Shown: piece after piece, positions 4,724-52,907 of the stretch
Numbering within the stretch: the first letter of the stretch is position 1
Layout: each line of letters begins with the position of its first letter
NCBI GenBank assembly: GCA_964016885.1
Contig: OZ024741.1
Location: 390,848,001 to 390,912,000 of the forward strand
Origin: Eledone cirrhosa
Taxonomy: Eukaryota
Direction: 5' to 3'
DNA length: 64,000 nucleotides
Translations under genes and position numbers: made by a program
Notes under the pieces: generated by a model
The model's input: only the letters and a program-made list of their open reading frames with translations
What the model was told of the DNA's origin: nothing
Database searches by the model: none

Positions 4724-4977
4724 AATATATATATAATATATATAATATATATATATAATATATATAATATATATATATAATATATATATAATATATATAT
4801 ATAATATATATATAATATATATATATAATATATATATAATATATATATATAATATATATATAATATATATAATATATAATATATATATAATATATATAAT
4901 ATATAACATATATATATATATAATATATATATATATATATATATAAATATAGTTTGTCGTTCCTGGGACGGGAAAAT

Positions 4978-5057
4978 GCTTCTCTAATGAGCTTTGGTTT
5001 TCCATCATAAATCTATCGGATTTATGAGGTTTTACAAAGCGAAACTGAAGTAAGGGC
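4978..5057 (+). ncRNA. Hammerhead ribozyme copy with mutated core (CTAATGA)
   Basis: Paralog of 5467-5548 with a G5>A change in the catalytic box. Confidence 0.55.
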
Positions 5058-5466
5058 CACTAGAAGAGGTAAATATTTATATTTATATTATATTTTTTAA
5101 TGTATTTTGAAAAATTGATTGAATTTTACTTGTTCTGCTTATCTTAATATTAAAGTTCTGGTGTATCAAATTAACACCATTGAACAACCTTGAATCATAG
5201 ACAACCTATGTATTTCTAGGGGTACCTAGTATCCCTGGACATATTAACTTCTACCTTTTTCTCCGTCCGTTGAGAACAAATCTGTTGCTCTACTTGGCTG
5301 CTATTTTTTTAGTAGTAATTGTAGACAGCAAGTCTTTGATTTTCCCGCTTTTACTTCGGTCCAGTTTACATACGGGTCAATTTTACGACCTTTCAGACCT
5401 TTATTAGCTGGCAGGAGGTTGTATATTTTGTCGTTCCTGGGACGTTTAGCCCTAGGAAGGGAAAAT

Positions 5467-5548
5467 GCTTCTCTGATGAGCTTTGGTTTTCCATCATAAA
5501 TCCATCGGATTTATGAGGTTTTACAAAGTGAAACTGATCAGTAAGGGC
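5467..5548 (+). ncRNA. Type I hammerhead ribozyme
   Basis: CTGATGA (5473). Stem II GCTTTG...CAAAGT with inner hairpin TCATAAATCC/GGATTTATGA. GAAA, palindromic stem III CTGATCAG, GUA cleavage triplet. Stem I is short. Confidence 0.7.
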
Positions 5549-6110
5549 CACTAGAAGAGGTAAATATTTATATTATATTTTTTAATGTATTTGAAAAATT
5601 GATTGAATTTTACTTGTTCTGCTTATCTTAATATAAATATAATATATATATATATAATATATATATATAATATATATATAATATATAATATAATATATAT
5701 AATATATATATATATATATATAATATATATATATATATAATATATATATATATAATATATATATAATATATATATAATATATATAATATATATATAATAT
5801 ATAATATATATATAATATATATATATATATAATATATATATATATATATATATAATATATATATATATATATATAATATATATATATATAATATATATAT
5901 ATATATATAATATATATATATATAATATATATATATATATATATAATATATATAATATATAATATATATATATATAATATATATATATATATAATATATA
6001 TATGTGTAAATGAAGTAATTCCATCGGAAAAGTCCAGGAAAAAAGAGTGCTCTATGTAAGCAACAGAGCTTAATTATTATTATTATGTAATAAACAACAT
6101 AAGGCAATTA

Positions 6111-6170
6111 TTCCATTTACCAGTGGTTTCTTAAAAGCAAAGGTTTTGCTTTCAATCCTCAGAATGAAAA
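6111..6170 (-). ncRNA. Type I hammerhead ribozyme
   Basis: Minus strand: TTTCATT-CTGAGGA-TTGAAAGCAAA(acc)TTTGCTTTTAA-GAAA-CCACTGG-TA-AATGGAA. All three stems pair; GUA triplet. Confidence 0.85.
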
Positions 6171-6513
6171 ATCCTGGTTTGTTTATTGAATATGGATTCT
6201 AAAAACGAAAATGCAATCTATATGAAAGTGAGGCTGCAAAAGGGAGGAGGAAAGGAAAAATAAAATAAAATAAAACTACACATGCAAACACACACAAAAA
6301 AACCCAAAAGCATACTTACACACACACACATATATATACACATATAATTTGCACGCATACACACATACACATACACATACATATACATACATACATATAT
6401 ATATATATATATATATATATATACATACACATACATACACATATATATATATATAAAAAAAAAAAGAGCGTACACCTACACACACATACACATATATATA
6501 CACACATATACAC

Positions 6514-49068: not shown

Positions 49069-49939
49069 TATATATATATATATATATATACTTTCACAAA
49101 GTATATAGCTAATATCCTACAACATATTCCACGAATAACGGTTAATTTTTTACACATATTTCAATATATTCTACAATGTATTAATTTAGTTTCTCAGCAT
49201 ATATTAAGACTTTGACCTTTTTTCAATAGCCTTAGATTTTCGTTCATACCTTCGTAGATTTTGTAAACAAATTATGGCGTCATCTGTTTTTCTACGTTTA
49301 TAAATCATTCTAGCAATTTCCTTTATTTACTTGTTGATATAAAATATATATAGATTTTTAATAGAAATTTTTAATTTTGACACAGATAGACTATTTTTAT
49401 TTTTTAATTTTATTTTATTTTATAAAAAAATTTTTGATACTTATTTTAATTTAATTTAATTTTTTTAAATTTAATTTTATTAATACATTTTTACACTTCT
49501 TAATCCAATTTTTAGTATTTAAACCCAATATAAAATAATATAGCCAGTTTCTATATTTTAGACCTCTAATATTTGAATACCATCTATAATTGTTTCTACG
49601 TTTTAGCACAAGGCCAGCAATTATCCAGTGCATTACTGGTACTTTATTTTATCAACCCCTTTATTTTATCGCACATACATCTCATCAATTTACTTTTTAA
49701 CCGTTATTTACAGCTTGTTTCATTTTGACAGCGTTCCCGATCAAAAGTCTCTCTCTCTCTTTCTCTTTCTCTCTCTTCCTTCTTTCTTTTTTCCTTTTTT
49801 TTCCCTTTTTCTTCTCTTCACTTTCTTTTTCCTTTTTCTACTTCTTCTTTCCTTCAAATACACCACGCCACTACACCAATACTTACTCTAGTAGCATACC
49901 TCCCCATCTAATCCTTATAGCACGCACCAACCGCATAGT

Positions 49940-50433
49940 TTAAACAACTCTACTCTCCCTAACCGCAGCAGTAACTGCAACTGCCGTTACCCTAATGCAT
50001 GCCCACTAAATGGACAATGCCTTACACCCAATATAGTATATAGGCGCACAGTTAAAACAGCATCACATACTAGCTCCTATATTGGCTCTACCTCTAACCC
50101 TTTTAAGGTACGCTATAACGCGCACTCTTTTTCCTTCCGAGACCCTAGCAATAGATGTTCGACATCTCTATAGCTAGAGATGTCGAACATCTATTGCTAG
50201 GGGCTCATTAAAAACCTTAAATTAACCAATATTGAACACTCACTAACATGGGATATCTTGGCTAGAGCCCAACCGTTCAATGGACGAAGAAACTCTTGTA
50301 ATCTCTGTCTTACCGAAGCATATTACATAACTCTATCACGCCCTCTACCGATTAATGATAGAACGGAAGTAACTATTAGCTGTCAACATCGAAGGGCTAA
50401 TTCCTTCGCCAACAGAATATTTGACCCAACATA
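49940..50433 (+). pseudogene. PLE GIY-YIG endonuclease domain interrupted by a palindromic duplication
   Basis: CNCRYPNACPLNGQCLTPNIVYRRTV...SYIGSTSNPFKVRYNAHSFSF...STSL, then WDILARAQPFNGRRNSCNLCLTEAY...INDRTEVTISCQH. Confidence 0.85.
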
Positions 50434-50809
50434 GTCATCTATTCCCATTTTTGCTTATAGCTAATAAGTTAAATAGTTATAGCTAACTTAGATAATTATA
50501 AGTTACCTCCCTTACATTGTCTCTCACTTAAAATCATTAGCACTTCTTAACTATAAACTACCCACAATTTCTAATTTCTCGAGGAGTTACTTCCCCTGAA
50601 ACCACCTTCTAATTAGTAAGATAAATATGTCCTTTGGCGGCCATCTTGTTACCCATAGGCAGATCTCACATAATGCAGCCTCGACAGAAGAATATTGCTC
50701 GCCTATGGCAGACAATAGATATACCCAGGACACCATAGTGAAATACCAATATATGGAACATTACATTCATGTAACCATCTTTTTTTACCTTAATTTATAT
50801 TCCTTTGAA

Positions 50810-50928
50810 GTTCCGATGAACTGCTCCAATTTTACCTAAGTTAATTATCTTCAACTGAACCAGATCAATAATGATCTATAATCATTTGATCCAGAAACAT
50901 TATATGGAATAGCGAAACAATTGTAAAC
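50810..50928 (+). ncRNA. Hammerhead variant (CCGATGA core) downstream of the GIY-YIG fragment
   Basis: GTT-CCGATGA-long stem II-GAAA-CAATTG-TA-AAC. Confidence 0.55.
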
Positions 50929-51249
50929 GGACATTATTAGTATTATTATTATTATTATTATTATTATTATTCTTTACATTCCTTACATTAAACTAAAATT
51001 ATGTTGACAATCTTTTCTTCCTTGTGAAATTTGTGGTCTTGTTTTGCTTAACTAATGAATATTTCCAGCTCTTTGCACCTAACCTCTGCATGAACCCAGC
51101 CACCTAGCTGCCTTCCACTGCATATTGCACATTGAGCACATGCCTTTACGCTTTGGCTTCTAACTAATTCACCAATCTCTCTTCTCTTCTATCTCCATCT
51201 TTCTCTTTAAGATTGGTTACTCTTGAACTGTATATATATATATATTTAT

Positions 51250-52907
51250 ATTACTTCAAAATATTAATAAATATAGACATTCATGTGATCAAATATATTT
51301 TATTATACATATTTCAGAGATACTGAGCTATTTCAAGAGTACATCCTCATCAGATAAAATAAGTTGATGCTTGACATACCTTGACTATGTTGATGGTTAT
51401 AATTTAGTCATGGCAGTGATTAGTTATGACAAAACTCGATATTTATATACCTTAAGTTGAAACATGAAAAATTACATATAATACAGAGAATTACATATAA
51501 TATGAGAATGTGTAAAAAGATATATAAATAATTAATAATATATAATACATAAACTTCTATAACTGTTAAAAATTTAAATAATAATAATATATTCATACCT
51601 TATTATTGTTGATAGTGGAAGTGATAGATCGAGATAGGAAATCATGAGGAAAGAGAGAAAAAAAAAATAAAAAGGAGATTTGATCGTAGGAACAAGAGAA
51701 GGGAGAAATGATCAAATGATAGAGAGAGGAAAATAAGTTAAATCGTATAATCAAAGGGAGGGAGATATGTATTGTAACATGTAAATAGCGTATAATTAAA
51801 TAGGGGGAAAGAATAATGCGTGACCGTTTATTTTCAAATCTTAAGTTAATTGAAAATAGTCAATTAATCAAATGACCTAAGATTTTAGACTATAATATTT
51901 TAAAGGATTTATATTATTGTATTATATCTGAGTTCAAGCAATTGTAACGCGAAAGAGATAAATTTATGTTTATCATAACTCCAAAGGTATTCTCAAGTAT
52001 ATTTAAAAGTATATTAAAATCAAGAATATAATCAATATATTAGTAAAAAAACCTTAAAATTAAAATTTTATTAATAAGTCATAAAGTATTATAAATGTAT
52101 CTAATAAGATATTATCAAACCAGATTTATCTAGATATACACATTTATATAATTTATATATAGACTATAAATGTTAAGGTTTAAGACGATATTATTCACTT
52201 ATATGTAGTATAATTTCTGTTAAGAGTGTTATCAATTTAATTCAACTAGATTTTACTGTATTTAAAATTTTACATCAATTTAAGTATACAAAAAAATTTA
52301 TCAACTTGGATCTAAGGAGACTTTTATACTATAAATGTATAATCATATCCTCGTGAATCGTAAATAACCTTTCAAAGTAATTAAACGGTTTACAAGCCTG
52401 AATACATTCAAGGTATGAAATATATAAGATATAAGATTTAGAAAATACGAAAACCAAAATTAAATGTATTTAAACAATCTAAAGGTCATACGTACTTAAC
52501 AAGAGATCAGGTTAACAATTTCAATGTTAAGGTAGAAACCCTTAATCTAATATTAATAATAGTATAAATAATAAAAGCATTACAAGAATTTTTAATCTGA
52601 GACAATATTGTTTCACGCACAGAGTTATTAATAAACGTCTAAATCATTTTACATTTATTCAATGTTTTTTCCTGATTTTTTTGTGAAGCTTGGAATGTAG
52701 CTGTAGCTTTGTGCAAGCAATTTGAGAATAATTCGCTTTTTTTGTTAATTAACTTATCATAATTATTAATTATTAATAGGGTCTCCATATCACAAAGATT
52801 GCAGTTAGGTGATACGGATGAATTAATGTAGACTTGGCTGAAATAGGTATAATAAAATATATTTGATCACATGAATGTCTATATTTATTAATATTTTGAA
52901 GTAATAA
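51250..52907. mobile_element. AT-rich element with ~65-bp inverted termini, probably a decayed PLE
   Basis: 51250-51316 is the reverse complement of ~52839-52907. Hammerhead at the left end. Interior coding is not reliably readable. Confidence 0.5.
51296..51361 (-). ncRNA. Type I hammerhead ribozyme
   Basis: Minus strand: TATTTTAT-CTGATGA-GGA...TCT-GAAA-TATGTA-TA-ATAAAATA; same family as 39033-39097. Confidence 0.75.

Follow-up and report, generated by a model that had tools for sequence, protein, structure and literature searches.

A genome-wide layer of type I hammerhead motifs in Eledone cirrhosa and its probable origin in Penelope-like and retrozyme-like elements

Introduction

Penelope-like elements (PLEs) of the Hydra clade have been described as few families, generally shorter than 3 kb (Craig et al. 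2021, PMC8557442), with a C-terminal GIY-YIG domain, RWK, DKT, CxCX5C, CxxC and CxH motifs, no CCHH motif, (TA)n targets, and a type I hammerhead near the 3′ end that often has U·U at the base of stem II. One of them, Hydra-1_oBim of Octopus bimaculoides, is listed with its hammerhead in the supplement of that paper. What the hammerhead does in PLEs that bear an endonuclease is described there as unclear, published PLE hammerheads cleave weakly (PMC4209133), and catalysis was dispensable for PLE insertion in vitro (PMC11167929). Here we describe the hammerhead motifs in 64,000 nucleotides of Eledone cirrhosa DNA (assembly GCA_964016885.1, contig OZ024741.1, positions 390,848,001 to 390,912,000 of the forward strand; this whole stretch is called the window), for which a preliminary description had listed about 15 hammerheads. 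The motifs are very probably type I hammerheads at the 3′ ends of PLEs, mostly of the Hydra clade, and of tandem elements without an open reading frame (ORF), and would belong to the biology of these elements rather than to a host function.

The features listed above for Hydra-clade PLEs recur in the elements reported here, and Hydra-1_oBim has the same 4+1+4 pattern in stem III as our family B. The present elements differ from the described ones in forming five or more families (B, B2, C, H and J) with units of 3.3–4.3 kb, in reaching up to tens of thousands of copies, in having stems II of up to ~115 nt, and in two peculiarities, a U4A core in family J and an internal hammerhead duplicate with G at position 17 (G17) in family B. 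Families E and G resemble the minimal PLE hammerheads (Cervera and de la Pena 2014, PMC4209133) in their short stems, an extra base after A9, G10.1-C11.1, a palindromic remnant of stem III, and an occurrence as inverted pairs 100–700 bp apart; the core variant reported there is U3-A8, whereas family G combines U4A with A6U. Families A, D and I fit, by their sequence, the retrozymes without long terminal repeats (non-LTR retrozymes), which are tandem repeats that lack an ORF and have a single type I hammerhead in each unit (PMC7229834; 10.64898/2026.07.22.740005) and have been proposed as non-autonomous partners of PLEs (10.64898/2026.07.22.740005). Low GC, and in family A a highly self-paired predicted circle, are further likenesses (PMC7229834). 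Unlike those retrozymes, usually 150–450 bp long, the units here measure 485, ~491 and 1009 bp, have long stems II, and insert strictly into (TA)n with a fixed 3′ end.

Hammerhead counts of ~120,000 for axolotl and ~5,000 for mussel have been given (PMC7229834). We found no census in the literature on octopus or cephalopod hammerheads, and the word ‘ribozyme’ is absent from the accessible part of a recent octopus repeat annotation (PMC13282606). Hammerheads in PLEs, retrozymes and a Hydra PLE from an octopus are already published, and the basic observation is not new; new are the size of the load, the U4A core of family J, the CAGUUGA core of family G and the internal G17 duplicate of family B.

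Results and discussion

Hammerhead sites in the window

All 15 listed sites are hammerhead-derived sequences. The CUGANGA/GAAA/UH core is complete, in type I order, at the nine sites for which it had been claimed, and altered at the other six, which had been called degenerate and each of which was assigned to a hammerhead family by comparison with other copies. A type I descriptor requiring exact CUGANGA, GAAA and UH together with three stems gave 7 matches in the window; dinucleotide-shuffled controls, 100 for each of two block sizes, averaged 0.01. Two later versions returned the same 7 matches, with 0.03 (30 shuffles) and 0 (40 shuffles) in the controls; the type I topology was borne out by these matches, and the shuffled control that the preliminary description had proposed came out in its favour. 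Both descriptors were satisfied by 7 of the 9 full-core sites. The exceptions, 10444 and 48643, have the core, stem I and stem III, and the base of their stem II lies outside the predicted minimum-energy fold of the window copies. The second of these had been put forward (as 48577) among the best constructs for cleavage, a choice that its weak stem II does not support.

Could such motifs arise by chance in AT-rich, repeat-rich DNA? The window has 36% GC and is rich in TA and TG repeats, and 63% of it matches repeats in the compared loci. Matches with one mismatch, taken alone, were indeed found at about the chance rate (4 observed, 0–2 in 8 shuffles), and such sites were admitted solely through family alignments. 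Against this stand the 7 exact-core matches in the window compared with 0–0.03 in shuffles, the counts in the genome samples below, and the fixed position of the motif at element ends, so that the probability of a chance explanation is negligible; for the exact-core motifs it is excluded by the shuffle controls.

Two sites were found beyond the original list, at 39266 (minus strand, family J) and at 42443, the latter a degenerate long-stem-II hammerhead of a further family (42358..42448, minus strand). On inspection, none of 20 other exact CTGANGA sites in the window was a hammerhead, including the repeat at 42087, for which types II and III were tried by eye. This abundant, TA-inserting repeat (42040-42157, plus strand) has an exact CUGAUGA followed by a hairpin, without GAAA, and may be a hammerhead relic or another structured end.

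The listed motifs sort into 11 repeat families, where several had been suggested. They are 3′ ends of Hydra-clade PLEs (with ORFs seen for B, B2 and C), two other PLE types, and the ORF-less tandem, retrozyme-like units, and most of the families insert into (TA)n.

Genome-wide density

Density was estimated from 10-kb samples at round coordinates chosen beforehand; 55 of the 56 existed (549,800 bases, 0.02% of the 3.0-Gb assembly). Two descriptors gave 33 and 40 matches in these samples, compared with 0–1 and 0 in five shuffles each, and their union amounts to 46 motifs, or 84 per Mb (95% interval 61–112). This extrapolates to a genome total of ~250,000 (184,000–334,000), which counts motifs and not active ribozymes. 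By the same rule 5.4 motifs were expected in the window and 7 were found (P = 0.29), so the window is typical for the genome and the hammerhead layer is genome-wide. The dense layer that had been proposed is thus a property of the genome, but the window itself is not unusually dense.

We suggest, tentatively, that the ~250,000 intact-core motifs may be the largest hammerhead load found on record, and that one of the most abundant Hydra PLEs of this genome may run on a new U4A hammerhead, either through non-canonical cleavage or as a non-catalytic structural signal. If this is true, the activity or inactivity of the U4A hammerhead would settle whether PLEs need self-cleavage in spreading.

Element structure and proposed mechanism

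The motif, its families, the ORFs, the tandem and inverted layouts, two alternative 3′ ends and the (TA)n targets were observed directly, and the origin in PLEs and retrozymes that had been inferred at first agrees with the element ORFs and the tandem ORF-less units. Families B, B2, C and J each have, by their motifs, a single ORF with a reverse transcriptase (RT) followed by a C-terminal GIY-YIG domain. The CxCX5C linker, CxxC and CxH are present in the Hydra-clade families and CCHH is absent; B, B2, C and J insert into (TA)n, and the hammerhead near the 3′ end is canonical in B, B2 and C and U4A in J. The ORFs of B2, C and J are of the same type as that of B, with 31–71% identity to it over the compared pieces. 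B has RWK and DKT, J and C have RWR and DKT, and the N-terminus of B2 is taken from tblastn matches only; in B2 and C the Hydra-type ORF has the expected orientation relative to the hammerhead. The family B ORF is a 699-aa open frame in locus L107 with RWK, DKT, YRDD, CxCX5C, CxxC and CxH and no CCHH, and matches the definition of the Hydra clade (PMC8557442). It has 1623 relatives at E ≤ 1e-20, and its relatives bear PF26215 and PF28514; Pfam gave no RT match for the ORFs of B or J, and their RT was read from motifs. An early in-frame stop in the L107 copy was considered as a feature of the element and rejected as locus-specific, 4 of 5 covering loci being open.

Two alternative 3′ ends were found in four of the families. 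Counted from the cut site, they lie at about +41/+110 in B, with a TA run within 420 nt in 23 of 30 loci. The corresponding ends preceding (TA)n are +48/+139 in C (a TA run follows in 25 of 25 loci), +33/+111 in B2 (25 of 25) and +41/+130 in J. They correspond to the PLE tail, which has been tied to two RT start sites (PMC11167929).

These structures suggest the following course of events. The prediction for tandem transcripts is that a palindromic stem III joins two copies, which then excise a unit-length RNA. The element's RT/GIY-YIG protein would nick a (TA)n target, and reverse transcription would begin at one of the two sites downstream of the hammerhead. The hammerhead would then be included in every insertion, however 5′-truncated, which would explain the density and the load. 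The ORF-less tandem elements are likely moved by PLE enzymes, and most scattered copies are likely inert passengers, isolated 5′-truncated monomers without a dimer partner. Stem III is self-complementary in 39 of the 46 sampled motifs. Ten stem III sequences were folded, of which 9 gave no monomer hairpin and all gave a homoduplex (−0.8 to −14.1 kcal/mol), as had been anticipated for palindromic stems that work as dimers; this predicted self-pairing fits the dimer model (PMC4209133; PMC6765202). Among Xenopus retrozyme dimers, 1 of 9 cleaved (10.64898/2026.07.22.740005).

A number of points weigh against this account. The cores of families J and G contradict the canonical hammerhead core. Rfam (cmscan), which had been proposed as a check, gave no hammerhead family among 129 matches in the window at E ≤ 1, only microRNA-like matches on TA/TG repeats; the census shows that long-stem-II type I hammerheads escape Rfam as a whole class. 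Cleavage and the RNA ends are predictions. The family A unit had no protein homology to PLEs (tblastn, 121 Hydra-type proteins), and none of D, F and I could be paired with an ORF. Stem II does covary in the C superfamily (16 aligned motifs), where 8 of 18 pairs carry two-sided changes, and this speaks for the account; stem I in the same alignment carries one-sided changes only, and since the descriptor demands pairing, covariation among its matches is partly built in.

Long irregular TA arrays lie at 4725-4951, 5631-6003, 8803-9630, 9975-10143 and 11446-11728. The extra base in them, read on the adjoining element end's strand, is A, and the array at 8803-9630 switches polarity midway; the arrays could include assembly error. 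That the element RT writes such arrays was considered and dropped, the flanks elsewhere being plain or variously interrupted (TA)n.

The preliminary description had also supposed that any intron crossing the region could be cleaved co-transcriptionally. At 84 motifs per Mb many must fall in introns, amniotes have conserved hammerheads in intronic positions (PMC6155905), and the long stems I of B2 and B form in the monomer fold; on this basis intronic hammerheads might cut host pre-mRNAs as they are transcribed and shape gene expression. Yet no convincing host exon was found in the window with Pfam on 20 and 78 frames, which gave only LINE (long interspersed nuclear element) domains plus two sub-threshold matches. 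The motifs lie on both strands, stem III lacks a monomer hairpin in 9 of 10 cases, and as repeats the copies are of the ordinary dispersed kind; in Xenopus, introns are depleted of retrozymes (10.64898/2026.07.22.740005). A host-relevant layer is accordingly very improbable, and intron cleavage by these hammerheads is a conjecture.

Non-canonical cores in families J and G

The family J hammerhead of the window (39213..39286, minus strand), missed originally, reads CAGAAGA, that is U4A, and has a 5-bp stem III and a 5+8-bp stem I. Family J is a 3.26-kb Hydra-clade PLE with this hammerhead at its 3′ end and a 712-aa open frame (locus L359). A pattern in which core positions 4, 6 and 7 were free, and which would miss a sister family with changed stems, had at least 18,116 exact matches, with A at position 4 in 100 of the 100 matches listed; 8 copies of the family occur in the 55 samples. 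For family G there are 2,197 exact matches, with CAGUUGA (U4A, A6U) in 97 of the 100 listed and the canonical core in none of them.

Rare core changes in otherwise complete hammerheads are known as natural variants (Perreault et al. 2011, PMC3088659), and U10.1·U11.1 is tolerated there as it is here. The variants named in the text of that paper are U4C, C3U/G8A, A6C, A6a, U13a and U15.1-A16.1, and not U4A. In the accessible rows of File S2 of PMC8557442, all 28 Hydra and Chlamys entries start the core with ctga, and J does not. No literature report of a U4A hammerhead was found; Lunse et al. 2017, on small PLE variants, may describe one, and the novelty is provisional. Separately, U4C cores (CCGAAGA and similar) occur in families at loci L152, L161, L130 and L157, and position 4 therefore varies across several lineages.

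On our reading, the hammerheads of J and G would cleave weakly or not at all, and their fold would be kept partly as a structural signal. It is possible, if less than an even chance, that the U4A core of J (and CAGUUGA in G) is instead a fully working natural variant, rescued by a long stem I and a stable stem III. The invariant A4 of the listed matches and the open frame in J would suit a working ribozyme, and U4C is a known viable natural variant (PMC3088659). The J scaffold outside the pattern also varies less than upstream DNA (24 of 1041 bases, compared with 132 of 2008; 30 loci, the copies being related), with polymorphic sites at 1 of 36 and 14 of 83 positions respectively (P = 0.037). 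None of the 40 variable positions listed from J contigs in three runs falls inside the ribozyme, but that list leaves out 37 further positions, and the short tail is as conserved as the scaffold. Activity usually falls sharply on core changes (PMC3088659), and in the minimum-energy fold A4 can pair with U11.1, lengthening a competing helix that buries the core. PLE insertion in vitro was unimpaired by catalytically dead hammerheads (PMC11167929). A weak or absent cleavage, with a partly structural role, is our preferred reading. Canonical cores (B, C) and non-canonical ones (J, G) occur side by side in young sister families of one genome; with open ORFs and thousands of copies, these provide a natural comparison, and an altered-core family of more than 18,000 copies would permit testing whether PLEs need self-cleavage at all.

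Family B and its internal G17 copy

Sites 6111, 7196 and 8709 all lie within one truncated insertion of family B (6004..8802, both orientations; 95-96% identity to a 4.29-kb unit in locus L107), in which an inverted 3′ end with a long tail (6004-6510, minus strand) is joined to a direct 3′ part with a short tail. The terminal hammerheads at 6111..6169 (minus strand; C3 6162, predicted cut after 6118) and 8710..8769 (plus strand; C3 8717, predicted cut after 8762) have full cores. Between them lie a C-terminal fragment of the RT/GIY-YIG ORF (6463..6798, plus strand; 88% identity, E 9e-59) and the internal duplicate (7196..7255, plus strand; C3 7203), which is altered by G at position 17 (7248), predicted to be uncleavable, and fixed in the element. 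The 4.29-kb element occurs in inverted and tandem arrangements, with 1183 candidates, of which 40 of 40 scored were identical over 141 bases. A TG/TA-rich stretch of ~1.6 kb in its 3′ untranslated region is part of the element, so that the microsatellite DNA at 6970-8520 is in large part cargo of the element. Family B is in this respect a PLE bearing 1.6 kb of microsatellite-like DNA and one source of such DNA in the genome.

In 16 of 30 loci the internal G17 copy lies 330–740 bases past the ORF end, and in 13 of 30 it lies 750–1470 bases ahead of the terminal hammerhead. It has 676 exact pattern matches in at least two subfamilies, and none of the other families was found to have one. The simplest reading would be a duplicate that was tolerated after losing the ability to cut, and its tolerance would hint at an active terminal ribozyme in family B. 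It is improbable that the copy instead serves the element as a dimer partner of its own, through which the terminal hammerhead could cleave while internal self-cutting is avoided. Such a partner might be seen in the retained core and 7 bp of stem II, in the spread over subfamilies, and in a predicted stem III heteroduplex of −7.0 kcal/mol, compared with −8.2 kcal/mol for the terminal homoduplex. However, stems I and III are weakened further in the youngest subfamily, as in a decaying duplicate, the subfamilies are too close for core retention to carry significance, and G17 was selected by the pattern search itself; the lack of such a copy in the other families also counts against it.

Retrozyme-like families

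Family A occupies 4952..5630 (plus strand) as a 5′-truncated insertion of 1.4 units of a 485-bp ORF-less tandem retrozyme, between the TA arrays 4725-4951 and 5631-6003. Its first hammerhead (4978..5058, plus strand; site 4984) is degenerate, with G5A and a shortened stem III. The second (5467..5549, plus strand; C3 5473, predicted cut after 5543) has the full core, a 50-nt stem II and a 10-nt palindromic stem III. Arrays of at least 20 units exist, and in one 10-kb array (locus L109) 20 hammerheads are spaced 484–485 bp apart. There is a single fixed 3′ end before (TA)n, 5′ truncation is variable, and the predicted circle is of low GC and highly self-paired (−140.7 kcal/mol). Contigs compared with the unit gave variants and no informative joint. 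Mobilisation of family A by PLEs is likely, on the basis of the common (TA)n target and end structure.

The family I hammerhead (10325..10449, minus strand; C3 10444, cleavage base 10330) has a full core and a palindromic stem III, and U·U closes its 96-nt branched stem II, which forms in the family version (−24.2 kcal/mol) and not in the window copy. It forms the 3′ end of a tandem unit of 1009 bp without an ORF, with two hammerheads 1009 bp apart, and the stem III palindrome covaries between family I and a relative in locus L145. Family D, a ~491-bp unit with partial tandems only and no ORF seen, has a full-core hammerhead with a weak stem II at 48580..48648 (minus strand; C3 48643, cleavage base 48585) and an inverted partner at 48827..48894 (plus strand; site 48831) that has lost C3 at its 5′ junction. 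A ~506-bp tandem repeat at 3531-4722, with inner 98-bp and 25-bp repeats and a TA array at its end, contains no hammerhead that we could find.

Other Penelope-like families

The hammerhead of family B2, a Hydra-clade PLE (11752..11829, minus strand; C3 11819, predicted cut after 11762), has a full core and a 10-bp stem I, with A·G at the base of stem II throughout the family. A C-terminal ORF fragment (13068..13271, minus strand; 91% identity) lies 1.3 kb upstream. The young Hydra-clade family C is represented by a full-core hammerhead at 39033..39097 (plus strand; C3 39041, predicted cut after 39089), and C2, which belongs to the C superfamily, by another at 51296..51361 (minus strand; C3 51353, predicted cut after 51304). 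Family H has a degenerate hammerhead (50810..50928, plus strand; site 50813; U4C, weak stems) with a Hydra-type GIY-YIG fragment upstream (49940..50431, plus strand), and an intact relative of the hammerhead is found in locus L129. Perfect inverted repeats occur at 50138-50207, inside this endonuclease fragment, and at 46208-46295.

The minimal hammerhead of family E (35176..35211, minus strand; C3 35207, cleavage base 35180) has a full core and a 4-nt palindromic stem III. The family is older (85–91% identity), and 3 of 25 loci carry, upstream and on the same strand, a GIY-YIG fragment; a LINE RT at 36886-37215 was considered as its partner and rejected. Family G's minimal hammerhead (43331..43366, minus strand) reads CUGUUGA in the window (43363) and is the 3′ end of a 3.33-kb canonical PLE with a C-terminal endonuclease. 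The element has DKG, RVT_1 (E 1e-8), a Cys-rich linker and a GIY-YIG domain (E 3e-4) with an internal CxxC, and may by these features be of Neptune/Nematis type; the linker is not an exact CX2-5CxxC match. Family F is a palindromic fold-back element, of which the window holds one hammerhead-derived arm (41815..41854, plus strand; site 41821) in a copy with a stem III deletion. With its two hammerhead-bearing arms, the RNA would form a single long hairpin.

Among the compared loci, L122, L142 and L162 hold a hammerhead family with a 100–115 nt stem II and a CGAUCG palindrome in stem III, and many mini-elements at L081-L105, L123, L187 and L189 consist of two inverted hammerhead-bearing ends 150–200 bp apart. 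Fragments of further PLE families of non-Hydra type, without a link to the window motifs, were seen at L094, L049, L173 and L235. The LINE frames of the window lie at 108-3230 (minus strand), 61077-63105 (plus strand) and 36031-37340 (minus strand), and comprise an endonuclease-RT frame of 1040 aa, which has a PHD-like finger, and two broken copies.

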